The position numbers and the translations under genes were made by a program. A model generated the notes under the pieces. The model was given only the letters and a program-made list of their open reading frames with translations. It made no database searches and was not told the origin of the DNA. From assembly GCA_963736115.1 (NCBI GenBank), contig CAVTNR010000012.1, positions 92,147 to 156,146 of the forward strand: 64,000 nt of DNA, written 5' to 3'. Shown in pieces: positions 20,914-39,517 of the stretch; the first letter of the stretch is position 1, and each line of letters starts with the position of its first letter. Source of the stretch: an uncultured bacterium (GTDB lineage: Bacteria > Zhuqueibacterota > QNDG01 > DTFT01).

Positions 20914-20944
20914 AAAAATCAATGTGTTTATTTGTATTGTTACT

Positions 20945-21220
20945 TTAGATATTCTGACGCGTATGAATTACAGCTAGAATATCGATTTGGTCAGGTTTAA
21001 CAAAGTAGATGATACGGTATAATCCTTCAAATACTTCTCGGATTTGTTCCATTTCATATTCAGGAACTTTTCTGCCAGATAATGGAAAATCAGCTATTTG
21101 AATGGATCGTCTAGTAATTCGGTCGACCGTCTGTTTTGCGTATTCTGGGGAATCAAGAGATATATATGAGTAAATGGCATCGAGATGGTTCTCCGCCGTT
21201 TCTGTCCAGAAGACTTTCAT
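20945..21220 (-). CDS. ParE/RelE family type II toxin
   Basis: 92-aa ORF with plasmid-stabilisation ParE/RelE fold motifs; overlaps upstream antitoxin by 4 nt. Confidence 0.7.
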   Translation of the reverse strand: MKVFWTETAENHLDAIYSYISLDSPEYAKQTVDRITRRSIQIADFPLSGRKVPEYEMEQIREVFEGLYRIIYFVKPDQIDILAVIHTRQNI

Positions 21221-21405
21221 CACGTTAAACCATATTTATCTCTTAATTCACTTACATCTTTTACTTTTCCCGATTTACTGTCTGAGAGACCTTTTTCGAT
21301 TACTTGACGCACATAAATTTCGTAGATAAGATCATCCCATGTTGAATTATCCGGCATCTTATCTATAAGTTTATGGGCGTCATCTTTAATAATTGAAGTT
21401 GGCAT
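21220..21405 (-). CDS. putative addiction module antitoxin component (TIGR02574-like)
   Basis: 61-aa ORF immediately upstream of toxin with 4-nt overlap. Confidence 0.55.
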   Translation of the reverse strand: MPTSIIKDDAHKLIDKMPDNSTWDDLIYEIYVRQVIEKGLSDSKSGKVKDVSELRDKYGLT

Positions 21406-21627
21406 ATTATCCTCTCATTTGAATTCTATAATAATATACAGCTATTATTTTGAATTTTCAATATTTAATAGCCGAACCTATTATTATACGGCCAATTCCC
21501 CAACAAACCACATTTCTTGATACAGGTATTTCTTGGCCTCTGGAGGAAGAAAAAACTGAAATGGCTGATACAAGGCCTTTAATGTTTCTCTATGCATACA
21601 TTTTCCTGAAAGAGGCTATATCCAGTA

Positions 21628-22375: not shown

Positions 22376-22407
22376 AAAAAAGCCCGTCCCTTTTCAGGAA
22401 CGGGCAG
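22376..22407 (-). terminator. rho-independent terminator for the TIG-lipoprotein operon
   Basis: minus-strand gcccgttcc-tgaaaag-ggacgggc followed by TTTTTT. Confidence 0.6.
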
Positions 22408-22446: not shown

Positions 22447-23640
22447 TTACCATCTCCCGTAATACGGCGCGCCGGGCTCGCCCATGTCGATTCTGTGGAC
22501 GTTTCCGGCCCCGTTGATGAGCATCATGGCATACAGATAATTCCCGGTTCCCCAGACGGTCTTTTCGATCCCGGTTGTCAGAATGCCTTTGTAAAAGGCC
22601 TCCTGGGTTCCATCCGGGTTCAGGACAAAGACCGGGTTCACGTTGTCCGTGGAGATGAAAATCTGGCCGTCCACGGAAAAGGCCATGTCCTTGAATGCGG
22701 CCGTGTTGTACGGCGCGATGGCGTTGGCCTTGTCGAGCACCAGCTCGCGTTCGCCCAGGGTGCCGATCGCGTCCATGATCGGGTGCCGCCAGATCGCGGT
22801 CTGGGTTTTGGTTTCAACCCAGACATAGACGAATCCGTTGAAAACGCGGACGTCCTTGACATCATCGCTGGCGTACAACCCGATGGCCGCATTGGAGCCG
22901 TCCGGCTGGACGACGAAGAGATCGGCCGACTTGCCGGACATGTACAGAATGCCGTTCGAATCAAAGTCGCCCACCGAGATTTTCTTCTTCATGGTCAGCC
23001 ATTTGGCTTCGGTCCCATCCGCGGGGTTCCACTTCGCGACCGCCGTGCTGTTCGCGAACACCACGATGGTGTTGTCCGGCGCCAATACCGCGTCCGTCAG
23101 AACCTTGGTCACGGTCCCGGCCGCCGTCTTTTCTCCGGACGGCGTGACCCGGACCACGCTCAAATCGGCGAAAAAGGCATAGAGGTTCTCTTGGCTGTCC
23201 AGCGCGATCGCCTTGATTACCGTGCCCTCGAGGAACTGGCCGTACTCGGCTTTCACCGGGTCGGTGGTGAATAGCAACGGGGCCACAGCCATGGACAAGG
23301 CGTCATACGAAACGACCTTAATCGATACCGTTCCGGTCACGGACGGCCGCCGGACCGTCAGGCTGGTCGGCGACGCGGCGATCAGGTCGGCCTCGCTGGA
23401 GCCGAAATAAACCTTGTTCCGGTCTATCGTCGCCCCGAAGTTCCGGCCCTGCAGGACGATCGTGTTCACGCCCGCGGTCGCGCGGTCCGGAACCACGGCC
23501 GTGACGGCCGGAGCCGCGGGAATCGTGACTGAATCGTCGTATCTTGGCTCGGCCACGTTGTATTCGCATCCCGCCGCGGCGAGCAGAAGGACCGCGCAGG
23601 CCGATGCCGGCAGGATCCAGCCGTATTGAAAGCGTTTCAT
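22447..23640 (-). CDS. IPT/TIG domain plus beta-propeller lipoprotein (copy 1)
   Basis: lipoprotein signal LLLAAAGCEY; IPT/TIG-like segment then repeated propeller blades. Confidence 0.6.
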   Translation of the reverse strand: MKRFQYGWILPASACAVLLLAAAGCEYNVAEPRYDDSVTIPAAPAVTAVVPDRATAGVNTIVLQGRNFGATIDRNKVYFGSSEADLIAASPTSLTVRRPSVTGTVSIKVVSYDALSMAVAPLLFTTDPVKAEYGQFLEGTVIKAIALDSQENLYAFFADLSVVRVTPSGEKTAAGTVTKVLTDAVLAPDNTIVVFANSTAVAKWNPADGTEAKWLTMKKKISVGDFDSNGILYMSGKSADLFVVQPDGSNAAIGLYASDDVKDVRVFNGFVYVWVETKTQTAIWRHPIMDAIGTLGERELVLDKANAIAPYNTAAFKDMAFSVDGQIFISTDNVNPVFVLNPDGTQEAFYKGILTTGIEKTVWGTGNYLYAMMLINGAGNVHRIDMGEPGAPYYGRW

Positions 23641-23655
23641 CTCATTCTCCTTGCC

Positions 23656-24672
23656 TTAGAGGGAAAAGCGCGCCGTCATGCGCTGGACCTTGTCAAACAC
23701 CCCGAACGGCGTCATCGCGTAGTCGAACGACGCCCCGTAGCGCCGCACGCCCAGGCCGAACGTGAATCCGTCCTCGACGTTGTTCGACACGTAACCGCCG
23801 CGCACCAGAAGCGTCTTCAGAAGACCGTATTCCACCCCCACCTTCAACTGCTCCGGGTGGTCCCGGTGATGGCTCGCGTCCACGCTCACCAGAAGGCTCT
23901 GGTCCAGAGGCAGGTCCTCCACCAGGTCCAGAACGTCCATCGAGATCCCCAGGTTGAACACCAGCGGAAGCTGGAATCCCTCCTCCACGTACTCGATCTC
24001 CGTCGAAAAGTTCCGAACCGACATGCCGAACACCAGGCTCTTGAAGCCCGTCTTGAACTGCGTCCCGAAGTCAAACGCCATCGGCGTCAGGCTGTTTTTC
24101 ACCGTCACCGCCGTCGTATCCAGCGCCGCAGAAACCCGGGGCACCACGCTCTCGCCCAGGTCCTGGTGAACCCAGCGGACCTGGCCGCCCACGCTGAAAC
24201 GGTCCGTCAGACGCTTCGCGTATCCCACGCCCGCCGCCCACGCGCTCAGCTGGAACTTCCCCGTGTCACGGAATCCGTCCGGAGCGGTCTTGTCCACCAC
24301 CGTCCCGTAAAAATCCCCGTAGTCCACGTTCTGGAAGCTCACGCCCAGCACCCCCCACTCCCCCTTCGCCGGGCTCAGCGTCAACGCCACCGCGTTGTGC
24401 TTGATGTCCGCGATCCACGTGTTCTGGCTCGCGCTCACGTCCACGAACACGCCCTGGTTCGCCATGCCCGCGGGGTTGAAGAACAATGACGAAGACCCCG
24501 CCTCCAGGCTCGTCAGCGCCTCGGCCATAGCCGCGCCGCGCGCGTCCGACACCACGCTCAAAAACTGAAATCCCGTCTGCGCCAGCTTCTTGTTCCCCGC
24601 CTCCGCTCCGGACCCGAAACCAAGCACGCCCAGGCAGAGAACGCAGATTCCGATTTGATTGCTCTTGTTCAT
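23656..24672 (-). CDS. PorV/PorQ family T9SS-associated outer-membrane beta-barrel protein (copy 1)
   Basis: N-terminal FQFLSVVSDARGAAMAEAL...FFNPAGMA resembles PorV signature PFLLISPDARSGGMGD...WNPA; alternating beta-strand pattern; C-terminal F. Confidence 0.6.
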   Translation of the reverse strand: MNKSNQIGICVLCLGVLGFGSGAEAGNKKLAQTGFQFLSVVSDARGAAMAEALTSLEAGSSSLFFNPAGMANQGVFVDVSASQNTWIADIKHNAVALTLSPAKGEWGVLGVSFQNVDYGDFYGTVVDKTAPDGFRDTGKFQLSAWAAGVGYAKRLTDRFSVGGQVRWVHQDLGESVVPRVSAALDTTAVTVKNSLTPMAFDFGTQFKTGFKSLVFGMSVRNFSTEIEYVEEGFQLPLVFNLGISMDVLDLVEDLPLDQSLLVSVDASHHRDHPEQLKVGVEYGLLKTLLVRGGYVSNNVEDGFTFGLGVRRYGASFDYAMTPFGVFDKVQRMTARFSL

Positions 24673-24688
24673 CTCTCGTCTCCTTGCC

Positions 24689-26842
24689 TTAGCGTATGAC
24701 CACGAACTTCCGGATCACCGATTCCCCTTTACTGAACCCCGCCCCGTCCTCCGTCACCTCCACGTACAGCAGGTAGATGCCGCTCACGATGATCTGGCGC
24801 GACGATGTCATCGAATCCCACAGCTCGTCGCCCGCGCCGTTCGTGTGCTCTTTTGACCAGACCAGGTCGCCCCGCTCCGTGTACACCCGCACCTTGCACC
24901 GCGGCGGCAGGCCGTAGAACGCGATGCGGTCGTACTGCGACTCGTCCCCGAACTGGAACATCCGCGACCGCAGGTCGTAGGGGTTCGGCACCACGCGGAC
25001 CTGCGAGAGGCTCGTGCCCGCGGGTTTCAGCAGGTTGGCGGGCCGGCTCGTCAGGGTCCAGAACAGGCCGCTCAGCAGAGTGCGGTTCTCCTGCGTGCCG
25101 TCGTCCTTCGATTGAATCGCGTAGTAGTAGTCGAATCCGCGCGTGGCGGTCGTGTCGTTCCATTCGTTCACCGCGTCGGCCGCGCCGCACTCGAACACTG
25201 TCTCGTACCGCGAATCAACGCCGAGCACCGTGCCCACGGCCCGGCTGATCACGTAACCGCCGAAATGCGGGTCAGACTCGGCGTTGTCGGCCCAGGTGAG
25301 CTGGATACGGTCGCCGCCCGAACGGACCGTGAACCACTTCGGCGGCGGCGGCGGCTGGGGCAGAGACCAGCCGGATTCATAGTTCCTCACCGCGTTCCGG
25401 TACATGGCCAGCACGGAGTCCACGCCCGTGAACACCCACGCCTTTTTGTACGCGTTGTGGTCCGCCGTCTCGGAACCATCGGGCATCACGAGGCTGGGCG
25501 AGGCCGTGTTGTTGCGCCACTGCAGCCAGTTCCAACCCACTTCGCGGTTCTTCTCGCGCCCGATGCCGTTCACGCCCTCGGCGAACACGATGCGGACGCT
25601 GTCGCCTGGCGCCAATGTATAGGGCCCAAAGCCCTGGCCCTGGCTGGTGCCGCCTCCGCCCTGGCGACGGGCGTCGGTCAGGGTCATGGCGTAGTTGTTG
25701 CCGATCAGTTCGTCATGCGCCTGGGACGCATGGCCCTCGCTCATAACGCCGTAGCGGATGCCCATATAACTTTCATCATACTGGCTGACATTGGCGCTCA
25801 TGCCCACGATGTCGCCGTCCGAGGCGATGTACCAGGTGGTCTTCGGCTGGGTCGCATCGTCGTCTTGATTGGACGGCGACTTGTCCGCGTGCAAGGTGAC
25901 GGAGCCCGCGAACTTGGCCGAACCCATGAGCCCGTCCTCGTTCTCGTTCGGGCATCCCCAGTCCTCATTGTAACTGACATTCTGCCGGTCGTCCTCGGGC
26001 CCGTAATAGGAGTAATAGCCGCGCATGCCGAAGGTCGGCGAGGACGGATTGGTGAAGGACGCGGCCGCGGGATCCCAGTTGAAGGCATGGTTCAGCGTGC
26101 CTTCTCCCCAGACCGTGTTGAACGCGCCCCAGCCCAGGCCGAACCCGGGGCAGGCTTCACCCGCGAAGGCGTAGCGGACCGTGAAATACACCCAGAGGTC
26201 CTGCAGCGTCTGCGGATAGACCGTGCCCTCGCGGTCGATGATGCCCGTGTTCTTGAATACATAATCGTGGACATAGTAATCGTCCTGGTCGGGACTGGTG
26301 AAGGCCATCACCTTCTTGGTGACGGACACGCCGATCGACGTGTTGAACCGGACAAGCACCATGCGGTCGCAGGGCAGGTTCTCGTCCAGGCTGTCGAGTA
26401 CGTCGTAGGTATCCAGCACCGTGGCCAGGTTGTCGTCCACCGACACCACCGGGTGATAGTCCTTTCCGATCAGCTTGATCTCCTTCTCGAAGATCATGTT
26501 GACCCGCTCTTCGGGATTGCGGGGGCCGGATCCGATCACCTTGACGCTGAGCGTGCGGCCCAGACGGGACTCATGAAAGTTCTTCGCCCCGATCCAGAGT
26601 CCTTTCTGGCGCACCGTGTTCTGCTCGATGCCGTACTGGGCGGGCCAGGAGAAATGGTTCGTGTTGCCGACCTGGGATTCACTCTCGTACTCCGAGCCCA
26701 CCTCGTTGACGAAAGACTGAAGCTGCCCGACGCGGAGCCACCGGACATCCTGGGAGAAACCGGCGCCGGCGAAGACTGTCAGGGCCAGCGCCGCCGTCCC
26801 GATCCAGAGGCCACGGCCGAACTTTGTTTGTTGCGATTTCAT
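24689..26842 (-). CDS. secreted surface protein: novel N-terminal domain + poly-Pro linker + FN3-like + T9SS-type C-terminal domain (copy 1)
   Basis: start chosen at MKSQQTKF (26842) with signal peptide, 20 nt after TBDR stop; C-terminal VPNPYD...SGIYLLYVEVT matches Por tail pattern. Confidence 0.6.
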   Translation of the reverse strand: MKSQQTKFGRGLWIGTAALALTVFAGAGFSQDVRWLRVGQLQSFVNEVGSEYESESQVGNTNHFSWPAQYGIEQNTVRQKGLWIGAKNFHESRLGRTLSVKVIGSGPRNPEERVNMIFEKEIKLIGKDYHPVVSVDDNLATVLDTYDVLDSLDENLPCDRMVLVRFNTSIGVSVTKKVMAFTSPDQDDYYVHDYVFKNTGIIDREGTVYPQTLQDLWVYFTVRYAFAGEACPGFGLGWGAFNTVWGEGTLNHAFNWDPAAASFTNPSSPTFGMRGYYSYYGPEDDRQNVSYNEDWGCPNENEDGLMGSAKFAGSVTLHADKSPSNQDDDATQPKTTWYIASDGDIVGMSANVSQYDESYMGIRYGVMSEGHASQAHDELIGNNYAMTLTDARRQGGGGTSQGQGFGPYTLAPGDSVRIVFAEGVNGIGREKNREVGWNWLQWRNNTASPSLVMPDGSETADHNAYKKAWVFTGVDSVLAMYRNAVRNYESGWSLPQPPPPPKWFTVRSGGDRIQLTWADNAESDPHFGGYVISRAVGTVLGVDSRYETVFECGAADAVNEWNDTTATRGFDYYYAIQSKDDGTQENRTLLSGLFWTLTSRPANLLKPAGTSLSQVRVVPNPYDLRSRMFQFGDESQYDRIAFYGLPPRCKVRVYTERGDLVWSKEHTNGAGDELWDSMTSSRQIIVSGIYLLYVEVTEDGAGFSKGESVIRKFVVIR

Positions 26843-26862: not shown

Positions 26863-29800
26863 TCAACGGGTTAGGTCGAAGGACAGCCGGGCGCCGTAGT
26901 AGAAGTGCCTGGGATTCAGGAACCAGAAGGTGGATGCGTTCGGCATGTCGATATAGGCCTTGTCCTTCAGCACGCGGTCGATCCGTTTTTTGGCCACCTC
27001 GGACCAAGCTCCTCCGGCGTATTCCCAGTACAGGCCCGTCGAACCCTCGAAATAGATGGCCCGCGGCTTGCCGGACGAGGCCGGGTCGATCGTGCCCTGG
27101 TATTCCATCGGCTGGAACTCGACGCCGGGCTTCCGATAGTCCCCGACCCGGTCGTTCCCCGGAATGTTGTTGTAGGCCTTGTTCTTCGGCAGGTGAAGCG
27201 ACAGCATGTAGTCGCGGTCTCCGGTGTCCCACAGCCGCTTGGTGTTCAGCACATTGTCCACATCCATCATGATCTGCACGCTGGCCCGGCCCAGGCGGAG
27301 CGTCTTGGAGAGCCGCAGGGTGGTGTTGAAATAATCCAGGGTCCGTACGTTATATGAAATGGACGGCACGTTCCGCGGGTTCCAGGTCACCCAGTTGCTG
27401 GCCTGCCAGTTCAGGAGCATGTTGAGCATCCATCCGCCCAGGGGCGCGTGGCCGAACACGGCCGGCCCCATGTCTCCGGGAGTGTACAGGCTGAGGTCGG
27501 CCCGTGCGTACGGCCGCGGCATCGGCCGGTCCTGGTACATGTTGATCGTGGCTTCGTCCCACTTTTTCTGCTCGGACGGATCCTGATACTGCCGGGCGCT
27601 GTTGAAGTGGCCGGACGTGCTGACCTGGTAGGTGTAGTTCGCGAACCCGGACCACCAGCGGCCCGTACTTTTGCGCAGGGTCAGCTCGAAGCCGCGGATA
27701 TCCTCGTACCGGTTGCTCGTGGTGAGCCCGTACGAATAGCCGGCGACCGAGTAGTAAGTGGTGTAGTCCTGCTGATCCGAGATGTCGCGGTAGAATGCGG
27801 TGACCTGCAGGAGAAAGCTCCTCGGGAGCAGGTGGTCGTAGCCCAGTTCGTAGGAGATGGTTTTGGCCAGGATCATGCTGGGATCGCCGATGCTGGTCAG
27901 ATAGCGTTCCGCGTTGCGCTGAACCCGGAACAGAGTCTCATACTGCGGCATCTGCTTGAAATGGCCGTAGTTGAAAAACAGCTTGGAGTTTTCGGTGATG
28001 GGATGCGAGATGCCGAGCCTGGGGCTGAGCTGCCACTGCGGCTTTGATTCCTTCATGGCGTACTCGGCGGCCGGCTTGTACTTGGACGAATAGAAGGCGT
28101 TGTCGTAGTGTTCGATGTTCCACCATTCAGTGCGGGAATCGCTGTAGTCGAGCCGCAGGCCCGCGTTCATCGTGAATCCCTTGGTTTCGAGCTTGTCCTG
28201 CAGATAGAGGCCGGCCCGGACCGGGAACACGCGCATCTGAACGCGGTTGGCGTAGGTCTTGCCGGCGGTGGCGGACGCGATGGTGCCGTAGTCGAAATCC
28301 AGATCGTTGTACACGAGTTCCGCGCCGGCCTTGACCAGGTTGTTGTAGTCGACCTGGCTGGTGTAGTCGGCCTTCAGCGTGGTGGAGCCGACTTTGGAGA
28401 AGTCGCGGGCTTTGGCGACGTGGGAACCGCCGATGATGATCACGCCGTTCACCTCGGACGGCCAGTATCCCAGGGGGTTGGAATCCTCGTAGAATCCGGG
28501 CACGACCTCGGTAAGGGCCGATGTGTCGCGCAGGGCCCTCGGCCGCACGTTGTAGTCGCGCCGGAACTGCTCCAGAGTGATTTCATAGAACGTCTTCGAG
28601 CTGACCGTGTGGGTGAGCTTGGCGGCCAATGACCGGTGCCCGATGTCGGCCAGGCAGAAGTTGTAGTCGGAGAACATGTTCACCAGGTCGAAGGTGCTCG
28701 CGACGTTCAGCGCGACGCCCGCGATCTCGTTCGGGTACCGCGGGTAGTAATAGGTGCCCGTGCCGTCCCAGTTGTGCCGTATGGTGAACTGCTTGCCGGC
28801 GAGCGCGGACAGACGCAGTTTCATGGTCTTGGTGATATCGGCATTCAGCTGGAGGGTCCAGTCATAGTCTTTGTAATCGGGACGGGACAGCGGCCAGACC
28901 AGCATGTCGCGATGCTGACGGAACGAACCAAAGAACCGCAGATCGCCCAGTGCCTTTCCGATCACCGGAACCGGCCCGCCGAAGCCCGCGTCAATGTCGT
29001 AATCCGCCTGGTCGTTGATCTGCCGCTTGCGGATCTCGTACTCGAACGCGCGACGGGCGGCCAGGGGCGTCAGGTCGTTGTTCGGATTATTGTCCGTGCA
29101 CAGGGACTGTGAGATGGCGTTCCATCCGACGAATTCCATGTACTGCTTGCGTGTGTACTCGTCCCACGCGCCGCTGGCCGTGCCCGTCCAGCACACGGCG
29201 TCGTCGTAAAACGGACGCATGACATAGGAGTCCGGGTCATGCACGTCCACGATGCCCGTGCCCCGCCAGTACTTCGGCGCGGCCGGGCTGAGCCGCGTTT
29301 GGACGCTTCCGAAATAGCCCTGGCGGCTGCCCTCCTGGGTGACCACGTTGACGATGCCCGACTGCACCTGGCCGTATTCGGCGTTGAATCCGCCGCGCTC
29401 AACCGAAATCTCCTTGATGGCGGACAGTGCCAGCTTGGTGATGGGCTGGTTGTTGCGGGGATCACGCAGGGTGACGCCATCCATCATGAACAGGGCCGCA
29501 TCGGCCATGCCGCCGCGGATGCTCAGGCCCTGCATGCCGGCCTGCATGCCCAGCACGCCCTCGATGTTGGCCACGGGCAGGTCCTGAATTTCCTTGTCCG
29601 TCACGGAAACGACGCTGGTGGCCACGTCCGTTTTCACGAGCTCGCGCTTGGCGGCCACGACCACGGTTTCGCCCTGGAGGACTTCGTCGGCCAACCGCAC
29701 GTCCACATGCGCGGTCTGGTCGATGAGCACGCGTATGGACTGCACCGTCACCCGGCCGTACCCGAGCATGGAGAGCTGGACCGAATGGGTGCCGGGCGGC

Positions 29801-30012
29801 ACTTCGAGAATCGTATACGTGCCGTCCAAGTCCGTGACGCCGCCGAGCGCGGTGCCCGCGACCATCACATTGACGCCCGGCAGGGGCGTTCCTGTTTTCT
29901 GGTCCGTGACCTGTCCCCTTATCTTTCCGGTCGTGCCCGCCCAAAGCGGGGTGCCGAGAATCAGGACCAGAAGCAGCGTCTGGCCGAGGGCCCGCGTGAA
30001 AATGCTTTTCAT
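26863..30012 (-). CDS. SusC/RagA-like TonB-dependent receptor (copy 1)
   Basis: ATG 30012 with GGAGGATGG RBS; signal peptide; carboxypeptidase-regulatory-like domain; TonB plug; long beta-barrel. Confidence 0.8.
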   Translation of the reverse strand: MKSIFTRALGQTLLLVLILGTPLWAGTTGKIRGQVTDQKTGTPLPGVNVMVAGTALGGVTDLDGTYTILEVPPGTHSVQLSMLGYGRVTVQSIRVLIDQTAHVDVRLADEVLQGETVVVAAKRELVKTDVATSVVSVTDKEIQDLPVANIEGVLGMQAGMQGLSIRGGMADAALFMMDGVTLRDPRNNQPITKLALSAIKEISVERGGFNAEYGQVQSGIVNVVTQEGSRQGYFGSVQTRLSPAAPKYWRGTGIVDVHDPDSYVMRPFYDDAVCWTGTASGAWDEYTRKQYMEFVGWNAISQSLCTDNNPNNDLTPLAARRAFEYEIRKRQINDQADYDIDAGFGGPVPVIGKALGDLRFFGSFRQHRDMLVWPLSRPDYKDYDWTLQLNADITKTMKLRLSALAGKQFTIRHNWDGTGTYYYPRYPNEIAGVALNVASTFDLVNMFSDYNFCLADIGHRSLAAKLTHTVSSKTFYEITLEQFRRDYNVRPRALRDTSALTEVVPGFYEDSNPLGYWPSEVNGVIIIGGSHVAKARDFSKVGSTTLKADYTSQVDYNNLVKAGAELVYNDLDFDYGTIASATAGKTYANRVQMRVFPVRAGLYLQDKLETKGFTMNAGLRLDYSDSRTEWWNIEHYDNAFYSSKYKPAAEYAMKESKPQWQLSPRLGISHPITENSKLFFNYGHFKQMPQYETLFRVQRNAERYLTSIGDPSMILAKTISYELGYDHLLPRSFLLQVTAFYRDISDQQDYTTYYSVAGYSYGLTTSNRYEDIRGFELTLRKSTGRWWSGFANYTYQVSTSGHFNSARQYQDPSEQKKWDEATINMYQDRPMPRPYARADLSLYTPGDMGPAVFGHAPLGGWMLNMLLNWQASNWVTWNPRNVPSISYNVRTLDYFNTTLRLSKTLRLGRASVQIMMDVDNVLNTKRLWDTGDRDYMLSLHLPKNKAYNNIPGNDRVGDYRKPGVEFQPMEYQGTIDPASSGKPRAIYFEGSTGLYWEYAGGAWSEVAKKRIDRVLKDKAYIDMPNASTFWFLNPRHFYYGARLSFDLTR

Positions 30013-30307
30013 ACCATCCTCCAAGAAATGAGATGGGACTGCCGTGAAAATGCCGGGAATCTGATGAAATACGTTAATACGGAATGTGCCGTTTACTTAA
30101 TCGTTTTAGCCAAACCATACAAAAACCTTGCTCAATCGAGCCTATTTCCTTAACAACTATTTATAATAATATTATGAAGTTAGGAGTCGACCGGAAACGT
30201 TTCCAATAATATACAAAAAATCCCCTTTTCCGCAAGCACTTTTTAAACTGAACCGCCCGGGGTTGCGAAGCCTCGGGCGATCAAAATCGGAACATATACA
30301 GGGGGGT

Positions 30308-30927: not shown

Positions 30928-32148
30928 TTATCTGAACATCCCGACCGGCGGCGGCGCCGGGCCGAAATCCGGTCCCATATCGATCCGGATCAGGTCTCCC
31001 TTGGTCCCGACGAGTTGGAGCATGTACGCATAGCGGCTGTTTCCCCGGACCAGCCGCTCCGCGCTCCCCTTGATGATGCCCTTGTACCAGGTGTCCAGTG
31101 TCCCGTCCGCCTTCATCAGCAGGATGGGGTCGGCCGCGTCCGTGGCCACGTACATGTCGCCCGAGGCCGAGAACATCACGTCCTTGAACGCAGCGGCTGA
31201 AAATACGCCTGAAGCGGCTCGGTCCAGCACCGTTTCCCTCGGCCCGAGCGTTCCGGCCGCGTCGAGTATCGCGTGGCGGTACACGGCCGCCTTCGGCTCA
31301 ACGGTGGCGTGCTCCGCCACCACGTACACATAATTTCCATTCACCCGTATCTTCTTCACATCGTGAGTGGCATAAACTCCGAGCGCCGCTGAAAACGTCC
31401 CGTCCGGATACGACACGTACAGGTCGGTGTTCTTGGCGGCCATATAAATGTTGCCGTTCGCGTCCGCGTCCCCGACCGTGAAGCGTTTCGGCGCCTTCGC
31501 GACCCATTCCGTTTCCACGCCGTCCACCGGGTTCACCTTCGAGATCTTCGCATTGTTGCTCAGCAGAACCAGGCTTTGGTCCGCGGCCGGAATCACGTCC
31601 GTCACGCCCCGGAGCGTCGATTCCATGAAAACACTCTGCGTGCCGTCCGAAGCCACCTTGAACGCCTTCATCAGGCCGGTTCGGAAAATGTAGATGTTCT
31701 CCGCCGCGTCTACCAGGATCGCGTTGTTGGCCGCGCCGTCGATGAAGCCGCCGTAGGGCTCCGCCACGACGTCGACCGGGTATCCTTCGAAGCTTCCGAC
31801 CTCCAGCGCGCCCAGGGTCACCACTTTCAGATTCAGCGTCCCGGATACCGCCGGCCGCCGGATCAGAAGGGAGGTGGCGGTCGCGGAAATGATCTCCGTC
31901 TTCGCGCCGTTGAAATACACCCGGTTGCTGTCCGGCACGGGCGAAAAACGGTCGCCGCGTATCGTGACGGTATTCACGCCTGCCGTTGCCCGGGCGGGTT
32001 CCAGACCGGTCACCGACGGCCCCAGTTTCGCGGCATGGTCCTGGTACCACATGGGCACGGGCGAGTCGTATTCGCATCCCGCCGCGGCGAGCAGAAGGAC
32101 CGCGCAGGCCGATGCCGGCAGGATCCAGCCGTATTGAAAGCGTTTCAT
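30928..32148 (-). CDS. IPT/TIG domain plus beta-propeller lipoprotein (copy 2)
   Basis: first 27 aa identical to copy 1, remainder paralogous. Confidence 0.6.
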   Translation of the reverse strand: MKRFQYGWILPASACAVLLLAAAGCEYDSPVPMWYQDHAAKLGPSVTGLEPARATAGVNTVTIRGDRFSPVPDSNRVYFNGAKTEIISATATSLLIRRPAVSGTLNLKVVTLGALEVGSFEGYPVDVVAEPYGGFIDGAANNAILVDAAENIYIFRTGLMKAFKVASDGTQSVFMESTLRGVTDVIPAADQSLVLLSNNAKISKVNPVDGVETEWVAKAPKRFTVGDADANGNIYMAAKNTDLYVSYPDGTFSAALGVYATHDVKKIRVNGNYVYVVAEHATVEPKAAVYRHAILDAAGTLGPRETVLDRAASGVFSAAAFKDVMFSASGDMYVATDAADPILLMKADGTLDTWYKGIIKGSAERLVRGNSRYAYMLQLVGTKGDLIRIDMGPDFGPAPPPVGMFR

Positions 32149-32163
32149 CTCATTCTCCTTGCC

Positions 32164-33180
32164 TTAGAGGGAAAAGCGCGCCGTCATGCGCTGGACCTTG
32201 TCAAACACCCCGAACGGCGTCATCGCGTAGTCGAACGACGCCCCGTAGCGCCGCACGCCCAGGCCGAACGTGAATCCGTCCTCGACGTTGTTCGACACGT
32301 AACCGCCGCGCACCAGAAGCGTCTTCAGAAGACCGTATTCCACCCCCACCTTCAACTGCTCCGGGTGGTCCCGGTGATGGCTCGCGTCCACGCTCACCAG
32401 AAGGCTCTGGTCCAGAGGCAGGTCCTCCACCAGGTCCAGAACGTCCATCGAGATCCCCAGGTTGAACACCAGCGGAAGCTGGAATCCCTCCTCCACGTAC
32501 TCGATCTCCGTCGAAAAGTTCCGAACCGACATGCCGAACACCAGGCTCTTGAAGCCCGTCTTGAACTGCGTCCCGAAGTCAAACGCCATCGGCGTCAGGC
32601 TGTTTTTCACCGTCACCGCCGTCGTATCCAGCGCCGCAGAAACCCGGGGCACCACGCTCTCGCCCAGGTCCTGGTGAACCCAGCGGACCTGGCCGCCCAC
32701 GCTGAAACGGTCCGTCAGACGCTTCGCGTATCCCACGCCCGCCGCCCACGCGCTCAGCTGGAACTTCCCCGTGTCACGGAATCCGTCCGGAGCGGTCTTG
32801 TCCACCACCGTCCCGTAAAAATCCCCGTAGTCCACGTTCTGGAAGCTCACGCCCAGCACCCCCCACTCCCCCTTCGCCGGGCTCAGCGTCAACGCCACCG
32901 CGTTGTGCTTGATGTCCGCGATCCACGTGTTCTGGCTCGCGCTCACGTCCACGAACACGCCCTGGTTCGCCATGCCCGCGGGGTTGAAGAACAATGACGA
33001 AGACCCCGCCTCCAGGCTCGTCAGCGCCTCGGCCATAGCCGCGCCGCGCGCGTCCGACACCACGCTCAAAAACTGAAATCCCGTCTGCGCCAGCTTCTTG
33101 TTCCCCGCCTCCGCTCCGGACCCGAAACCAAGCACGCCCAGGCAGAGAACGCAGATTCCGATTTGATTGCTCTTGTTCAT
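32164..33180 (-). CDS. PorV/PorQ family protein (copy 2, 100% identical to copy 1)
   Basis: identical 338-aa ORF. Confidence 0.6.
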   Translation of the reverse strand: MNKSNQIGICVLCLGVLGFGSGAEAGNKKLAQTGFQFLSVVSDARGAAMAEALTSLEAGSSSLFFNPAGMANQGVFVDVSASQNTWIADIKHNAVALTLSPAKGEWGVLGVSFQNVDYGDFYGTVVDKTAPDGFRDTGKFQLSAWAAGVGYAKRLTDRFSVGGQVRWVHQDLGESVVPRVSAALDTTAVTVKNSLTPMAFDFGTQFKTGFKSLVFGMSVRNFSTEIEYVEEGFQLPLVFNLGISMDVLDLVEDLPLDQSLLVSVDASHHRDHPEQLKVGVEYGLLKTLLVRGGYVSNNVEDGFTFGLGVRRYGASFDYAMTPFGVFDKVQRMTARFSL

Positions 33181-33196
33181 CTCTCGTCTCCTTGCC

Positions 33197-35383
33197 TTAG
33201 CGTATGACCACGAACTTCCGGATCACCGATTCCCCTTTACTGAACCCCGCCCCGTCCTCCGTCACCTCCACGTACAGCAGGTAGATGCCGCTCACGATGA
33301 TCTGGCGCGACGATGTCATCGAATCCCACAGCTCGTCGCCCGCGCCGTTCGTGTGCTCTTTTGACCAGACCAGGTCGCCCCGCTCCGTGTACACCCGCAC
33401 CTTGCACCGCGGCGGCAGGCCGTAGAACGCGATGCGGTCGTACTGCGACTCGTCCCCGAACTGGAACATCCGCGACCGCAGGTCGTAGGGGTTCGGCACC
33501 ACGCGCACGCCTTCGAGGCTGGTGCCCGCCGGTCTTCGGAGGTTCGCGGGCACATTCGTGAGGGTCCAGAACAGGCCGCTCAGCAGCGGCTGGCCGGGCT
33601 GCACGTCGTTCTGGGTTCCGTCGTCCTTTGACTGAACGGCGTAGAAGTAGTCGAATCCGCGGACCGCGGTCGTATCATCCCAGGTATGAACCGCGTCGCC
33701 GGCTCCGCACTCGAACACCTTCTCGTACACGGCCTTCGGATCCATCACGTTTCCCTGGGACCGGATCACGACGTATCCGCCGAAATGGGGATCGGCCGCG
33801 GCATTGCCGTTCCACGACAGCCGGATGCGGTCGCCGCCCGACTCCACCTTGAACCACGACGGCGGGGGCGGCGGCTGGGGAATCGCGTACCCGGACAGGA
33901 AGGCCGTCCGGGCGCGCTGGAAGGTCTGCAGGAGGGAATCGCGGCCCGTCTGCACCCAGGCGCGCTTGTACGCGGTGTGGTCGGTAGTCGACGCGCCGTC
34001 GGGCATGACGAGCGCCGGCGCCCCCGTTCCCTTGTAGACCTGCAGCCAGTTGCCGCCGACCTCGCGGTTCTTCTCGCGGCTCAGACCCGCGACCCCCTGG
34101 ACCAGAACGACGCGGATGCTGTCCCCGTCGTTCAGGTCGTACGGACCGAAGCCCTGGGTGTTGGCGTACCCGCCGACGCCGCTGCCCCATTCGTTGGCCG
34201 GCGTTCCGGATTCTTCGATGTCCTGCGCCTGCGTCTTCTCGGCGTGCCCCTTGATCATGAAGGCATAGCGCTTGGCCATGAACGTCTCGTCGTAAATGGA
34301 CTGGGAAGTCGTGCGCTGGGAGATGTCCTCGTCGCTGTTGACATAATGAGTGGTCCGGGGCTGGGTCGGGTCGTCCGCCGGATTGCCGGGCGCCGTGTCG
34401 ACGTGCAGGGCCGCCTGGCCGACGTACCGGGCCGCGGCCATGATGCCGGTGCCCTGTTCGTCCGGACAGCCCCAGTCATCCTCGAGGGACACGGGCCTCT
34501 CCGAATGCGGGCCGTACCAGGCGATATTGGCGCGCATGCGGTACGCCAGGGAATTCGGATCATTGAACGCATCGGCTTCGGGGTTCGTGCCGATCACGTC
34601 ATTCACCAGGTTGCGTCCGTAGCTCGAGTTCCCCACGCCCCAGGTCCGGTCGGTCGAATTCTCCGGAACGGATTCGCCGGCCAGGGCGTAGCGGTTGAGC
34701 AGCATGAACCAGAATCCCTTCACCGGCTGTTTGACCACCGTTCCGGCGCCGTCGATGACGCCGGTGTTCTTCAGGGTGTAGTCGTATATGTAGTAATTGT
34801 CGTTGTACTGCTGGGTGTAGACGTAGACCTTCTTCGTGACCGTCACGCCGACCGGCGTGTGGTTCTTCACGACCAGCATCCGGTCCGCATTCAGGTCCGG
34901 GTCGATCTCGTCCAGCACGTCGTACAGGTTGTTGTGGTTGGCGAGCTGGTCGTCGACGGACACGACGGGGTGGTCGAAGCGGCCCACCAGCCGGAAGTCG
35001 ACGGCATTTGGGATCGGCCGGCCCGCGGGATATTCGTTCGGCTTCATCCCGATGTTCGTGACGGCGTAGGCGAACACCTTGTCGACGGGCGCCTCGTAGT
35101 AGTCTGCACATCCCAGCCACATGCCGCGCGCGCGCAGGGTCGCCTGCACCAGGCCGTACTGCGCGGGCCAGGAGAAACGGTTGTTGTACTGGTTGTCGCC
35201 GCCGGTCTCCGGCTCGCATCCGTGCTCGGAGAAATAGCCGTGCAGCGCGTTGACGCGCAGCCATTTCATCTGCTGGGACCAGCCGATATACTGGCCGCCC
35301 TGTCCGAGCAGGGGGCGGAACGGCAGGAGCAGGGCCGCCGCGGTCAGGGCGGGGATTATCCGGTGGATGTTCATGTTCTTCAT
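33197..35383 (-). CDS. secreted surface protein with T9SS-type C-terminal domain (copy 2)
   Basis: signal peptide MKNMNIHRIIPALTAAALLL; conserved NRFSWPAQYG block; last 105 aa identical to copy 1. Confidence 0.6.
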   Translation of the reverse strand: MKNMNIHRIIPALTAAALLLPFRPLLGQGGQYIGWSQQMKWLRVNALHGYFSEHGCEPETGGDNQYNNRFSWPAQYGLVQATLRARGMWLGCADYYEAPVDKVFAYAVTNIGMKPNEYPAGRPIPNAVDFRLVGRFDHPVVSVDDQLANHNNLYDVLDEIDPDLNADRMLVVKNHTPVGVTVTKKVYVYTQQYNDNYYIYDYTLKNTGVIDGAGTVVKQPVKGFWFMLLNRYALAGESVPENSTDRTWGVGNSSYGRNLVNDVIGTNPEADAFNDPNSLAYRMRANIAWYGPHSERPVSLEDDWGCPDEQGTGIMAAARYVGQAALHVDTAPGNPADDPTQPRTTHYVNSDEDISQRTTSQSIYDETFMAKRYAFMIKGHAEKTQAQDIEESGTPANEWGSGVGGYANTQGFGPYDLNDGDSIRVVLVQGVAGLSREKNREVGGNWLQVYKGTGAPALVMPDGASTTDHTAYKRAWVQTGRDSLLQTFQRARTAFLSGYAIPQPPPPPSWFKVESGGDRIRLSWNGNAAADPHFGGYVVIRSQGNVMDPKAVYEKVFECGAGDAVHTWDDTTAVRGFDYFYAVQSKDDGTQNDVQPGQPLLSGLFWTLTNVPANLRRPAGTSLEGVRVVPNPYDLRSRMFQFGDESQYDRIAFYGLPPRCKVRVYTERGDLVWSKEHTNGAGDELWDSMTSSRQIIVSGIYLLYVEVTEDGAGFSKGESVIRKFVVIR

Positions 35384-35408
35384 GATCGGCCTCACGGTCG
35401 TTTGGGGA

Positions 35409-38400
35409 TTATCGCAGGTCCAGGGTCATCCGCACGCCGAAAAAGACCTGTCGCGGATTCAGGAACGTGAACGACGTCACGGCCGGCATGTCGATGTAGG
35501 CCTTGTCGTCCAGTATCCGGTTCAGGCGGCTCTGGCCGACATCGGCCCATGCGCCACCGGCGTACTCGACGGTCCGCCCGGTGCTCCGGTCGTAATAGAT
35601 GACCCCGGGATCTCCCGTGTCGGAGGCGTAGTTGATCGTTCCGCGTCCGAACATCGGCTGGTACGCCACGCCCCGTCTCCGGTATTCCCCGATACGGTCG
35701 TTGCCCGGAATGTTGTCATAGGCCTTGCTCTTCGGCAGGTGCAGGCTGTTGTAGTACAGGTCTCGGTCGCTCGCCTTGCCCCCGAAGTTCGCGAGCGACA
35801 TGCGCTTCAGGTTGAACAGGTTCTCGACGTCCGCGAAGGCTTCCATGCGCACGCTCCCGAACCGGACGCTCTTGCTCAGCCGGAGAACCGACGTATAGAC
35901 GGCCTTCCTCTGCACGTTGTAGGAGAGGGACCGGATCTGCTTGGGGTTCCAGGTCTCCCACGCCCCCGCCTGCCATCCGAGCAGGACATTGGCCAGAAAG
36001 CCGCTCATCGGGTGGCCGCCCAGCAGGCGCGGGCCGAATCCGGACGGCGAGACCAGCGAGACATTGACCCGCGCGTAGGGACGGGGCGTCGGCCTGTCCT
36101 GGTAGAGGTTGACCGTGGACTCGTCGTACTCCCGCTGCAGGGACGGATCCTCGTAGATCTGTTCGCGGCCGAAGTGCCCGGATGTGGTCACCTGGTATGT
36201 GTAATTGCCGAAGAAGGTCCACCACCGCCCCCGGTTCTTCCGGAGCGTGAGCTCAAAGCCGCGGATGTCCTCGTAGCTGTTGCTCGTGGACCGCTGGTAG
36301 GAAACGCCGCCGACCGACAGGTACTGGGTGGCGTTCTGCTGGTCGCTGATGTCGTGGTAGAAGGCGGCGACCTGGGCCAGCAGCGCGTTGTCCAGAAGCG
36401 CGTAATCGAATCCGAGTTCGTACGAGATCGTCCTGGCGAGAATCAGGTCCGGGTCGCCGAACAGGGTCAGCATGTGGTCGTTGGAACGGCCGATCCGGAA
36501 AAGTGATTCATAGGACGGCATCTGCTTGAAGTGGCCGTAATTGAAGAACAGTTTGGAATTCTCCGTGATGGGATGCGAGATCCCGAGCCTGGGGCTGAGC
36601 TGCCACTGGGCCCGCGTCTTCTTCATGGGAAATTCCATGTCCTCGCTGTACAGCCGCGTGAAGAAGGTCGCGTTGTACGGGTCCACGTTCCACCACTCGG
36701 CGTTCGAGTTGCTGACATCGAGCCGGAGTCCCGCGTTCATGATGAAGCCCTTGGTTTCGAGCTTGTCCTGCACGTAGGCGGCGGCGCGGTAGGGAAACTG
36801 ATTCATCCGGACGCGCACGTCGTATGAATCGGCGAAATAATTGGAAACGGTGCCGTAGTCGAACCGCAGGTCATTGTACGTGAATTCGACGCCCGCCTTG
36901 ACCAGGTTGGCGAAATTGACCTGGCTGGTCATGTCGGCCTTCAGCGTGGTGGAGGCGGTGCGGGTGTTGTCGCGCTGTTTGCAGGTGAACCCCCCGAACA
37001 CCATGCCCGATATGCCGAGCTGGTCGTCCGGGTTGTACCCGAACGGCGCCTCGTCCACGAAATAGCCCGGTACGATCTCGGTTGTCCTCGACGTGTCGCG
37101 CAGTGTGCCTTTCCGGGCCCAGTAGTTGCGGGCGAAACGCTCCAGGGAAACCTCGTAGAACGTTTTCGGATTCAGCGCGTGCGTGAACTTGGCGGACAGG
37201 TTCTGATGGCTGATGTCGGTCGGGCTGAAAATGCCCGTCCCGAACAGGGAGGAGTGGCTGTTGCCGATCACCGAGGCGATCGTGGCGGCGTCGCGGACGT
37301 AAAAGGGCGCCCAGTTCTGCATCATGGTGTACTGCTTGCCGATCAGCCCGGTGACCACCAGGTGCATGGCGGGAGACAGGTCCGTCGTGAGCTTCATGGA
37401 CCAGTCGTAGTCGACATAATCGGGCCGGCTCAGGGGCACCACGAGCATGCTGCGGTTCCGGCGGTAGGAGGTGAAGAAGCGGAGATTGCCCAGCGGCCTG
37501 CCGATGAGCGGAATCAGCCCCCCGAAACCCGCGTCGATGTTGTAATCCTGCTGGTCGTACACCGGCTTCTTGCGGGTCTCCCACATGTACACGCGCTGGG
37601 CGCCGAACGGCGACAGGTCGTTGGTCGGGTCGGAATCGCTCATCAGCCGTTCCGAGATGGCGTTCCATCCCTCGAAATCGGGGTACTGGAGGCGGGTGTA
37701 CTTGTCCCATCCCGTCCACCGGCCGTCCCCGTTCATGTCGGTGTAGGTTTCGCCGGCCTGCCAGTTCGCGTCGCCGTTCCCGTCCGTGAAAGGCTCGCCC
37801 GCGGTTCCCATCCAGCAGACCTCGTCGTCGAAATACGGCTTGAGGAAGAAGCCGTTCCGGTCGAACGGCGAGATTCCGAAGTTCTTCATGCCCGGCGGCG
37901 AGATCTTGAATTCCACGCTTCCCTGGTATCCCGATTTGCCGCCCTCCCGAGTGACCACGTTCACGATGCCCGAGCGGACCTGGCCGTACTCGGCGTTGAA
38001 TCCGCCGCGCTCGATCGAGATCTCCTTGATGGCGGACAGCGGGATGCTGGACACGGGCGAGTTGTTCCGCGGGTCGCGCAGGGTGATGCCGTCCATGAGA
38101 ATGAGGGCCTCATCCGCGCCGGCGCCGCGGATCTGGAATCCGCCCTGGATGCCGGCCTGGAGGGACACCACGTTCTCGACGTTCGAGACCGGCAGTTCCC
38201 GCACTTCCTCAGCGGACACGGCCGTGACGCTGGTCGCGACGTCCGGCCGGACGGCCTCGCGCTTCGCGGCCACGGTGACGGCCTCTCCCTTGAGCACCTC
38301 CTGCTTCATCTTCAGATCCACGCGCGCGGTCTGGTCGATCAGGACCCGGACGTCCTCCACGGAAGTCCGGGCGTATCCCATGAGCGAGATGACCACGGTG

Positions 38401-38627
38401 ACCGTTCCCGGCGGCACTTCCAGAATCGTGTAATTGCCGTCCAGGTCCGTCGCCGCTCCGAGAGCCAGACCCTGAACCATCACATTGGCCCCGGGCAGGG
38501 GAGCTCCGGTTTTTCCGTCGACAATGGTTCCTGCGATTTTTCCCCGGGTGCCGGAGACGGCCGGAACCGACAGGACGGCCGCGCAGAACAGGATCCATCC
38601 CAAGATCCGGTGTTCAGCAGTTTTCAT
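35409..38627 (-). CDS. SusC/RagA-like TonB-dependent receptor (copy 2)
   Basis: ATG 38627 with GGAGG RBS; same domain order as copy 1, roughly 55-60% identical by eye. Confidence 0.8.
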   Translation of the reverse strand: MKTAEHRILGWILFCAAVLSVPAVSGTRGKIAGTIVDGKTGAPLPGANVMVQGLALGAATDLDGNYTILEVPPGTVTVVISLMGYARTSVEDVRVLIDQTARVDLKMKQEVLKGEAVTVAAKREAVRPDVATSVTAVSAEEVRELPVSNVENVVSLQAGIQGGFQIRGAGADEALILMDGITLRDPRNNSPVSSIPLSAIKEISIERGGFNAEYGQVRSGIVNVVTREGGKSGYQGSVEFKISPPGMKNFGISPFDRNGFFLKPYFDDEVCWMGTAGEPFTDGNGDANWQAGETYTDMNGDGRWTGWDKYTRLQYPDFEGWNAISERLMSDSDPTNDLSPFGAQRVYMWETRKKPVYDQQDYNIDAGFGGLIPLIGRPLGNLRFFTSYRRNRSMLVVPLSRPDYVDYDWSMKLTTDLSPAMHLVVTGLIGKQYTMMQNWAPFYVRDAATIASVIGNSHSSLFGTGIFSPTDISHQNLSAKFTHALNPKTFYEVSLERFARNYWARKGTLRDTSRTTEIVPGYFVDEAPFGYNPDDQLGISGMVFGGFTCKQRDNTRTASTTLKADMTSQVNFANLVKAGVEFTYNDLRFDYGTVSNYFADSYDVRVRMNQFPYRAAAYVQDKLETKGFIMNAGLRLDVSNSNAEWWNVDPYNATFFTRLYSEDMEFPMKKTRAQWQLSPRLGISHPITENSKLFFNYGHFKQMPSYESLFRIGRSNDHMLTLFGDPDLILARTISYELGFDYALLDNALLAQVAAFYHDISDQQNATQYLSVGGVSYQRSTSNSYEDIRGFELTLRKNRGRWWTFFGNYTYQVTTSGHFGREQIYEDPSLQREYDESTVNLYQDRPTPRPYARVNVSLVSPSGFGPRLLGGHPMSGFLANVLLGWQAGAWETWNPKQIRSLSYNVQRKAVYTSVLRLSKSVRFGSVRMEAFADVENLFNLKRMSLANFGGKASDRDLYYNSLHLPKSKAYDNIPGNDRIGEYRRRGVAYQPMFGRGTINYASDTGDPGVIYYDRSTGRTVEYAGGAWADVGQSRLNRILDDKAYIDMPAVTSFTFLNPRQVFFGVRMTLDLR

Positions 38628-39517
38628 GTCAACCTCCAGACAAAATGCGTCCACGGTATTGCTTGTTCATTGAAAAGACGAATGGTTGTATCCGTCTGTG
38701 ACTGACTCTCTCGCGTAAGTCGATCTACCGACAGAATACGCTCAAGGCGCTCCTCTGTCATGATTATTTCCGATAATGAATGAAATAACTGCGCTGGACA
38801 GGATACGAAAGATAATTTGTACGGAATTTTTGAAAATCAGGAACCGAAATACGGTCTTCGGGAATGTCGCGACCCTCAGCAATCCAACAGTTTGTTTCCA
38901 TTCGCATGGGTTCTCCGGATGCCGGGTGCAGATGAATGGAACTCGTCCTATTACAGTAAACGTTAACGATAACGCCGAAAACCGGTTCTTCAGGCGTCCG
39001 GATCAGAGATGAATATGTGTTTCGCTATTTATCGAAAGGAATGGTTCGAATAAGATACAACTTTTTATCCCGAATGCAAGTTGTTTTCATTTTTTACTAA
39101 ACCGCTCCATCAGCCGGATCCTGAAAACGCGAAAATGACCGGAAATCGGCCATGCCCGGACATCCCATTCATGCTTCTACGGCGCGTTCATTCCGCACCT
39201 GTCTTATCCGTTGGTCCGGCAGCAGGGCTGTTGCATTTCCCAGCTAAGAGTATTCACCCCCCAAATGACAAACCTTTCAATCGGGCGGCCAGAAGCCTGG
39301 TCATTCCGGTTCCAGTTTTTCTGAATGATCGGAGATTGGGCTTCTGGCCGCTCCGACGGGTCGGCTTCTCGGCCTCTTTCGGGGTCCATCATCCAAGTTT
39401 CTTGCGATACTCCGCTGCTGACGGCAGGGTCCTTCAATATTTTATAGTGGCATTTTTTTGAAATTTGTTTTAACTTGAAATAGCGAAGAATCCCTCTTCC
39501 CTCAAAGGAGCCGCCCG

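Follow-up and report, generated by a model that had tools for sequence, protein, structure and literature searches.

The 64,000-nucleotide stretch of contig CAVTNR010000012.1 analyzed here (referred to below as the window) raises the question as to why two neighboring operons, most genes of which have diverged extensively, should be identical base for base over 1.44 kb. These operons are tandem four-gene units on the minus strand with 13–25-nt gaps between genes, and each of them encodes, in this order, a TonB-dependent receptor (TBDR1 and TBDR2), a secreted protein ending in a C-terminal domain (CTD), an outer-membrane barrel of the PorV/PorQ family and an IPT/TIG-domain lipoprotein (TIG1 and TIG2). 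The host, which has not been cultured, belongs to the Fibrobacterota-Chlorobiota-Bacteroidota (FCB) group of bacteria, and its nearest named relatives are members of candidate division KSB1, to which most of the named relatives of the proteins of this four-gene cassette belong (about 60–66% identity). The identical block is very probably the product of concerted evolution, in which direct repeats located 8.5 kb apart have repeatedly undergone gene conversion confined to the most conserved stretch of the operons.

Extent and content of the identical block

The two copies, which are separated by an offset of 8508 nt, match at all of their bases in the assembled sequence, and the exact run stops sharply, no further base matching at either end.

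23560..24997, minus strand: block copy 1 (locus 1), made up of the CTD, a spacer, the PorV/PorQ-family gene, a second spacer and the first 27 codons of TIG1; 1438/1438 bases identical to copy 2
32068..33505, minus strand: block copy 2 (locus 2), 1438/1438 bases identical to copy 1; differs from the corresponding block of the metagenome contig L001 (described below) at 127/1305 sites

Outside the block, the identity at the same offset amounts to 55–66% over the 260 nt before it and 70% over the 100 nt after it, and then falls to the background level. No third copy was detected in the 64-kb window. A chance origin is ruled out because this is an exact 1.4-kb match within 64 kb. The coordinates and the complete identity had been reported in a sequence-only reading of this DNA, and both proved to be exact when the two loci were aligned and the edges mapped. 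The gene content given there holds for the 27 codons of the TIG gene and the whole PorV-like gene, but the CTD part consists of 102 codons and the stop, not 105 codons.

The block therefore contains the 102 CTD codons (residues 631–732 of the 732-amino-acid copy) and the stop, a 16-nt spacer, the complete barrel gene (338 codons and the stop), a 15-nt spacer carrying a ribosome-binding site, and exactly 27 TIG codons, which encode the lipoprotein signal peptide, the lipobox cysteine and two further residues. The edge on the CTD side falls on R631 of the 732-amino-acid copy, the first CTD codon, in the motif R-V-V-P-N-P-Y, which corresponds in the AlphaFold model to the first strand of a seven-strand beta-sandwich. 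The identity extends to the synonymous sites and to both spacers. Along the CTD protein, the synonymous divergence (dS) between the paralogs is 0.74–1.0 as far as about residue 618 and declines from there to 0.15 and 0; dS is thus 0 within the block versus saturated less than 60 codons beyond its boundary. The surrounding genes have diverged, as the sequence-only reading had noted: the protein identity between paralogs is 53% in the case of the receptor, 55% in that of the secreted protein and 43% in that of the TIG lipoprotein, versus 100% in that of the barrel. An older conversion tract was considered at the shoulder of similarity upstream of the block and was rejected, since dS is saturated there; for the same reason, the shoulder is attributed to protein constraint.

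Block and flanks in a second genome

The nearest homologs of the barrel (87–93% amino acid identity) are metagenomic, and one of them is located on L001 (ENA ERZ2931798, NODE_45), a 32-kb metagenome contig assembled with SPAdes from short reads at about 10x coverage. All eight genes of the window operons are present in L001, and their order is unchanged. Its own two blocks are mutually identical over 1305 nt (9741–11045 = 17676–18980), and this stretch is nested in the window block, of which it falls short by 65 nt at the start and by 68 nt at the end. Of the sites of the block, 9.7% differ between the window and L001 (127/1305), and the PorV/PorQ-family gene shows a dS of 0.369 and a nonsynonymous divergence (dN) of 0.055, both of which are 0 within each genome.

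In the alignment of the four sequences, the informative sites of the block group the copies by genome, the counts being 127:0:0 in favor of (W1,W2)(LA,LB), where W1 and W2 are the window copies and LA and LB those of L001. The informative sites of the flanks favor orthology (691:30:32 upstream and 238:9:9 downstream). A block that groups by genome, between flanks that group by orthology, is what characterizes concerted evolution; it calls for one or more recent events in each lineage, and the comparison of the orthologous loci supports the recent gene conversion proposed in the sequence-only reading. The last homogenization occurred within about 2% of the window–L001 divergence time in the window (0 differences in 1438 nt) and within about 2.4% in L001.

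These data bear directly on the idea that purifying selection alone might maintain the identity. The barrel is indeed very conserved across phyla, with 60–73% amino acid identity, but the synonymous sites and both spacers are identical within a genome, whereas dS reaches 0.37 between genomes, and because of this contrast selection acting alone can be excluded. A second possibility is that the patch was replaced once, in a single recent conversion in the window genome, and that no process is ongoing. One event would suffice for the window considered alone, and the paralogous barrels of distant genomes have not been homogenized. However, L001 is in the same state with a block sequence of its own, so that two independent recent events are needed, and under a uniform model the joint chance of two single random events as recent as these is about 5e-4; in addition, the assemblies of two further lineages are broken at the block. 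A one-off replacement is consequently judged improbable.

Recurrent conversion, the preferred explanation, would operate as follows. Three parts of the operons are old paralogs (43–56% amino acid identity, saturated dS), namely the receptor, the TIG lipoprotein and the secreted protein as far as it faces the substrate, while non-reciprocal homologous recombination, presumably of the RecA type, would repeatedly copy the 1.44-kb stretch from one operon to the other; the module would thus evolve in concert within a genome and diverge between genomes. The tract may be confined to the block because the most conserved part of the operons would provide the best pairing substrate, and conversion of the flanks, as the parts that would determine specificity, might be either blocked by mismatches or selected against. 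Both operons would then most likely use a common barrel-plus-CTD pair as a plug and socket that would serve surface display or else export, their substrate-facing parts being different.

Other assemblies and the possibility of an artifact

Three other assemblies of relatives are interrupted at the block. L002 (Logan, SRR5183019) is a 1305-bp contig that differs from the L001 block by one mismatch and has exactly the same ends. L101 (SRR8925730) is a 1255-bp contig with ends lying 43 nt and 7 nt inside those of the L001 block; it is 95% identical to the latter and 90.7% identical to the window block. L107 (JAUCQC010000078.1, belonging to the metagenome-assembled genome GCA_030372965.1 at NCBI) corresponds to the segment between the blocks, comprising TIG2, receptor 1 and the N-terminal part of protein 1, and stops 124 nt and 136 nt into window-type block sequence. 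Such contig ends are the expected product of a k-mer assembler at an exact repeat, and the branch points at the block are real in other data sets. The assembly hazard pointed out in the sequence-only reading is therefore borne out by L002, which is coextensive with the block, by L101, which lies within it, and by L107, which ends inside it on both sides. As an exact repeat of 1.3–1.4 kb, the block is a breakpoint for the short-read assemblies of this clade, and the barrel gene may therefore drop out of short-read bins.

It might accordingly be asked whether the identity itself is an assembly artifact, in which a near-identical repeat was collapsed and written twice, or a single locus was artificially duplicated or made chimeric. 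The breaks and collapses just described in L002, L101 and L107 speak in favor of this, and L001 is itself a short-read SPAdes contig of about 10x coverage. On the other hand, L001 and L107 show the tandem arrangement as well, with the unique TIG2-to-TBDR1 junction, and the flanks of the two loci are fully different, hence no locus was duplicated; taken together, these two facts exclude a purely artificial duplication. The exact TIG2 protein is also encoded on a public contig of 446,460 bp, the source of the window. A collapse would itself need close copies, and with flanks about 60% identical and a difference of about 10% between genomes, conversion would still be required. An artifact is therefore unlikely to account for the block.

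A divergent allele at locus 1 of L001

The two loci of L001 differ in their relationship to the window. At locus 2, the window and L001 show about 91% nucleotide identity and a dS of 0.27–0.48; at locus 1, the identity is about 68% and dS is 0.74–0.99. The locus 1 of L107 is 89% identical to that of the window and 69.6% identical to that of L001, whereas its TIG2 shows 91.5% identity to that of L001 and 85.8% to that of the window, from which it can be concluded that the divergent allele is that of L001 locus 1. This region, which takes in the spacer upstream of the receptor and extends 0.8 kb or more past TIG1, is probably an imported allele, and it looks like a whole-cassette allelic replacement in one lineage. 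The low-identity stretch extends over positions 12414–21012 of L001, versus 30245–21505 of the window, and spans receptor 1, the N-terminal part of the CTD protein, TIG1 and the sequence downstream. The divergent locus 1 nevertheless still bears the block of L001 itself. The simplest reading in this case is a conversion from locus 2 into the newcomer locus 1, by which a divergent allele was refitted with the resident module.

The same observations suggest another scenario, in which the block would serve as a recombination anchor for the exchange of cassettes: divergent alleles would be acquired horizontally with crossovers falling inside the block, and the resident block would survive without any separate conversion. 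L001 locus 1 is in keeping with this, being strongly divergent (69.6%, versus 89% between the window and L107) around a resident block, and the dS values between genomes are higher at locus 1 (0.74–0.99) than at locus 2 (0.27–0.48). However, the divergence flanks the L001 block on both sides, so that two replacements would be needed, each of them ending exactly at the block; furthermore, the identity in the window would be left unexplained, its locus 1 being an ordinary one (89% identical to that of L107). The probability that anchored exchange produced the pattern is therefore very low.

Several points weigh against recurrent conversion as the explanation of the block, or limit its range. Popping of bubbles in the De Bruijn graph could mask a few true differences between copies in the window and in L001; masked single-nucleotide polymorphisms of this kind leave the conclusion about conversion unchanged. 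Both copies are found on one contig in two genomes only, the other lineages contributing contig ends alone, and L001 and L002 are perhaps not fully independent data sets. The direction of conversion in the window came out ambiguous, the edge sites being split 6:7 and 5:11 between the possible donors; since L107 showed that L001 locus 1 is a foreign-type allele, these edge sites are uninformative about the donor. Tandem cassettes also occur in distant genomes, but their barrel copies are just 55–80% identical at the nucleotide level, and the homogenization is therefore specific to this clade rather than cassette-wide. Lastly, selection for a match between barrel and CTD is not required to explain a single tract over two neighboring segments of high conservation.

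The twin operons and their products

The features of the two operons are as follows.

26863..30024, minus strand: TonB-dependent receptor 1 with CarboxypepD_reg, Plug and barrel domains (Pfam), first gene of operon 1; dS 0.86 versus TBDR2
24689..26842, minus strand: secreted protein 1 ("cargo"), about 717 amino acids, with a Sec signal peptide and no Pfam domain
24689..24997, minus strand: CTD of protein 1, a beta-sandwich of 102 codons plus stop, in the block; strands at 631–730 of the paralog in the AlphaFold2 model
23656..24672, minus strand: PorV/PorQ-family outer-membrane barrel, copy 1, 338 amino acids; NF033709 173.4 bits; best fold match 8gl6_F
22447..23640, minus strand: IPT/TIG-domain lipoprotein 1, 397 amino acids, lipobox LAAAGC; only the first 27 codons in the block
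22382..22405, minus strand: terminator-like hairpin and T-run directly past the TIG1 stop, with a 10-bp stem (7 GC pairs) and a TTTTTT tail; end of operon 1
35409..38654, minus strand: TonB-dependent receptor 2, first gene of operon 2; L001 ortholog 93% identical at the nucleotide level, dS 0.27
33197..35395, minus strand: secreted protein 2 ("cargo"), about 730 amino acids, with an N-terminal beta-rich domain, an FN3-like domain and the CTD (AlphaFold2 model, mean predicted local distance difference test [pLDDT] score 88.7)
33197..33505, minus strand: CTD of protein 2, in the block
32164..33180, minus strand: PorV/PorQ-family barrel, copy 2, 100% identical to copy 1
30928..32148, minus strand: IPT/TIG-domain lipoprotein 2, 406 amino acids; only the first 27 codons in the block

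The true start of secreted protein 1 is probably the ATG at 26842, past the TBDR1 stop. A 170-amino-acid predicted lipoprotein (30308–30820, minus strand; lipobox FLSC, weak Ig-like match) is encoded in the spacer between TIG2 and receptor 1. Since this spacer is about 900 nt long in the window and 386–395 nt long in L001 and L107, which lack the stretch, the gene is an insertion specific to the window lineage.

The protein encoded next to the receptor is mostly beta and carries no Pfam domain; in the structure search, the model of secreted protein 2 gave matches limited to FN3/PorZ and weak matches of the GH94 type. The family is conserved among more than 100 metagenomic proteins. The receptors score 66.6 and 81.5 bits with the SusC/RagA model TIGR04056, the cut-off of which is 368.

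The barrel matches the PorV/PorQ family model NF033709 with 173.4 bits (cut-off 90) over residues 32–337 of 338. Its scores with the equivalog models are below the cut-offs (PorV NF033710, 72 versus 250 bits; PorQ NF033711, 66.5 versus 220 bits), and that with the Pfam PorV model is 25.5 versus a cut-off of 27. The AlphaFold2 model (pLDDT 72) has the FadL-like outer-membrane beta-barrel fold and is nearest to PorV in Foldseek searches, in which the top matches were to the PorV of Flavobacterium johnsoniae (8gl6_F, E 1.5e-13; 6h3i_F, E 2.8e-11; template-modeling scores 0.61–0.66), followed by FadL and TodX. The barrel is therefore a member of the PorV/PorQ family, and the equivalog scores do not support its being a bona fide PorV or PorQ of the T9SS (type IX secretion system).

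The C-terminal domain and its pairing with the barrel

The CTD is a C-terminal beta-sandwich of about 100 amino acids (strands at 631–730 in the AlphaFold2 model) located where relatives bear a canonical sorting domain. No match above the threshold was obtained with the curated sorting-domain models (type A, TIGR04183/PF18962; type B, CHU_C), and a sequence search of the PDB with the CTD gave no match. Weak matches were obtained with CHU_C (17–21 bits versus a cut-off of 27) and with the tail of PorZ (E 0.003). Homology to type A tails was considered and dismissed, as a hidden Markov model of the cassette CTD matched the tail of a family 10 glycoside hydrolase (GH10) of the window only at E 0.19.

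Two relatives of the secreted protein, P0233 and P0196, carry Por_Secre_tail domains in the place of the CTD (at residues 629–704 and 745–822, respectively), and beyond about residue 620–638 they are no longer homologous to the cassette protein. Their genes (loci L103–L106) stand alone among glycoside hydrolase genes without any receptor, barrel or TIG neighbor, and they constitute two independent cases. Other relatives of the approximately 720-amino-acid protein contain CBM_5_12 or dockerin inserts. In most loci with sufficient upstream DNA, the barrel gene is preceded by a gene with a cassette-type CTD, and this was observed in several phyla. A specific partnership between barrel and CTD is plausible in the light of this conserved adjacency and of the barrel-less variants with canonical tails.

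The sequence-only reading had seen in the block a sign of co-evolution between a shuttle and the signal it recognizes. What speaks for this suggestion is that no other part of the cassette is as conserved as the CTD and the barrel and that the members with canonical tails lack the barrel; however, adjacency and conservation could by themselves explain the position of the tract. A role of the barrel as an anchor is at least as likely as that of a shuttle, and we would favor anchoring of the CTD protein beside the receptor. The joint homogenization marks barrel and CTD as one evolutionary unit and provides indirect genetic evidence of a joint function.

Distribution of the cassette

More than 50 loci from several phyla were surveyed, and the identities were calculated relative to the locus-2 proteins of the window. 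The order receptor, CTD protein, barrel, TIG protein recurs in many of the loci, which come from KSB1, Calditrichota, Marinimicrobia/Fidelibacterota, Ignavibacteriota and other FCB-group or unclassified metagenome-assembled genomes, and the cassette is often present as two tandem copies (loci L004–L100). The amino acid identity is 45–73% for the barrel, 40–74% for the CTD, 31–57% for the whole CTD protein, 33–64% for the receptor and 23–40% for the TIG protein, which means that the barrel and the CTD are the best-kept parts of the cassette and the TIG protein the least conserved. Scans of collections of genome and metagenome contigs for the PorV/PorQ-family protein yielded no relative above 73%. 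In the cultivable Rosettibacter and Melioribacter, the PorV/PorQ-family proteins show 60–63% identity to that of the window. A patch of about 90% identity in L011 was dropped, since it was absent from the global alignment.

No SusD homolog was found in the cassette, and neither a description of the four-gene cassette nor a case of concerted evolution involving TonB-dependent receptor loci was found in the literature searched. The data point to an uncharacterized receptor-associated cassette that has been kept across several phyla. It is conceivable, although we hold it only tentatively, that this cassette is a SusD-independent system of glycan capture widespread in FCB phyla other than Bacteroidota (KSB1, Calditrichota, Marinimicrobia, and Ignavibacteriota), in which a dedicated barrel would permanently hold the uncleaved CTD beside the receptor; the block would then be a shared plug and socket kept interchangeable by conversion, while the parts conferring specificity would diverge or be swapped in, as at locus 1 of L001.

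Relation to known systems

The classic examples of concerted evolution in bacteria are tufA/tufB, the rRNA operons and the copies of the amo operon. A survey reports that bacterial genes evolving in concert tend to code for components of a common complex or pathway (Wang and Chen, 2018, PMC6053082). The case described here resembles these in that the paralogs of one genome resemble each other more than they resemble their orthologs, that this recurs in separate lineages and that the genes encode parts of one putative complex. It differs from them in that the unit is a sub-operon module, which cuts through two genes (at the CTD and the signal peptide) and includes one whole gene while the rest of the operons has diverged by about 50%, and in that the time depth is shallow, the two species-level lineages being about 10% apart. 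Concerted evolution of bacterial paralogs is thus well documented, and what is new is that its subject is a barrel/CTD sub-operon module. This is a clean, well-bounded instance in an uncultured lineage, the edges of the tract coinciding with domain boundaries (the first strand of the CTD and the end of the signal peptide).

Segmental gene conversion is also known in the outer-membrane paralogs babA/babB, sabA/sabB, and homA/homB of Helicobacter pylori, where, as here, the membrane-anchoring segments are homogenized and the exposed, ligand-facing ones have diverged. Those genes, unlike the present ones, are dispersed single genes of a pathogen involved in adhesin and antigen variation, whereas the block described here spans three genes in tandem operons of an environmental bacterium.

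Pairs of barrels and CTD proteins are familiar from the T9SS, the barrel-CTD pair of the cassette being reminiscent of PorQ-PorZ and PorV-PorU. The predicted fold of the cassette barrel is nearest to T9SS PorV (6h3i, 8gl6), the latter structure being a substrate-CTD-bound complex containing PorV, and the C-terminal part of the CTD protein gave weak matches to PorZ in both sequence and structure (5m11). Unlike T9SS PorV, the barrel scores far below the equivalog cut-off and is present in two copies per genome, each of which is tied to a receptor operon, and the pairing is a predicted one. PorP/SprF-like barrel genes adjoin the genes of the type B CTD proteins that they bind, and their proposed role is surface anchorage via the CTD (Gorasia et al., 2022, PMC9143113). 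The cassette likewise has a T9SS-related barrel gene beside the gene of a CTD protein; however, its barrel belongs to the PorV/PorQ family, its CTD is below the thresholds for types A and B, and the pair is located inside a TonB-dependent receptor operon. With the tandem SusC/SusD systems of Bacteroidota, it shares receptors of the CarboxypepD_reg type, neighboring glycoside hydrolases and propeller-type sensors, and the pairing of cassettes, and it differs from them by the CTD protein, the barrel and the TIG lipoprotein standing in the place of SusD.

Genomic surroundings

The neighborhood encodes a GH2, two GH10 enzymes with FlgD_ig-type tails, a GH30, a BD-FAE esterase and two propeller/Y_Y_Y sensor kinases, a gene content that is consistent with hemicellulose use by a T9SS-bearing bacterium. 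A C25-family peptidase of 969 amino acids (3275–6184, minus strand) bears a sorting domain of T9SS type A (TIGR04183; 32 bits versus a cut-off of 23), which means that the organism uses type A T9SS signals; the match of this protein to the PorU sortase is weak (50 bits versus 420), and the protein does not count as a bona fide PorU.

Just downstream of operon 1 lies a low-GC island (17400–21500) with a GC content of 31–39% and a GC content at third codon positions of about 0.3, versus about 63% GC in the genome. It contains a B12-binding radical SAM gene split into two open reading frames (19339–19920, covering positions 1–174 of the model, and 18500–19249, covering positions 260–439), an open reading frame for a RelE/StbE-like toxin (20945–21223) and some unassigned ones. 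The island is probably recently acquired DNA carrying a disrupted gene; no tRNA was found beside it.

Two short repeats were observed upstream of the enzyme genes. A 55-nt element with the palindrome CCCACGG..CCGTGGG occurs at 41992–42046 and 43539–43593 (82% identical), upstream of the paralogous GH10 genes at 42195–43496 and 43560–44930, and may be a shared operator or terminator. A 53-nt inverted repeat (6340–6392 and 39392–39444, 81% complementary) is located upstream of the C25 peptidase and GH2 genes in the same relative orientation and may be a shared promoter or leader element. The paralogous propeller/Y_Y_Y histidine kinases (46696–50067 and 50627–53335), which belong to a type sensing glycans in hybrid two-component systems, show 76–79% nucleotide identity at their 3' ends (49318–50047 versus 52589–53318); this is an ordinary likeness between paralogs and not a case of homogenization. 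Lastly, a protein of 798 amino acids (56737–59133, minus strand) consists of a patatin-like phospholipase domain fused to an Omp85-type barrel.

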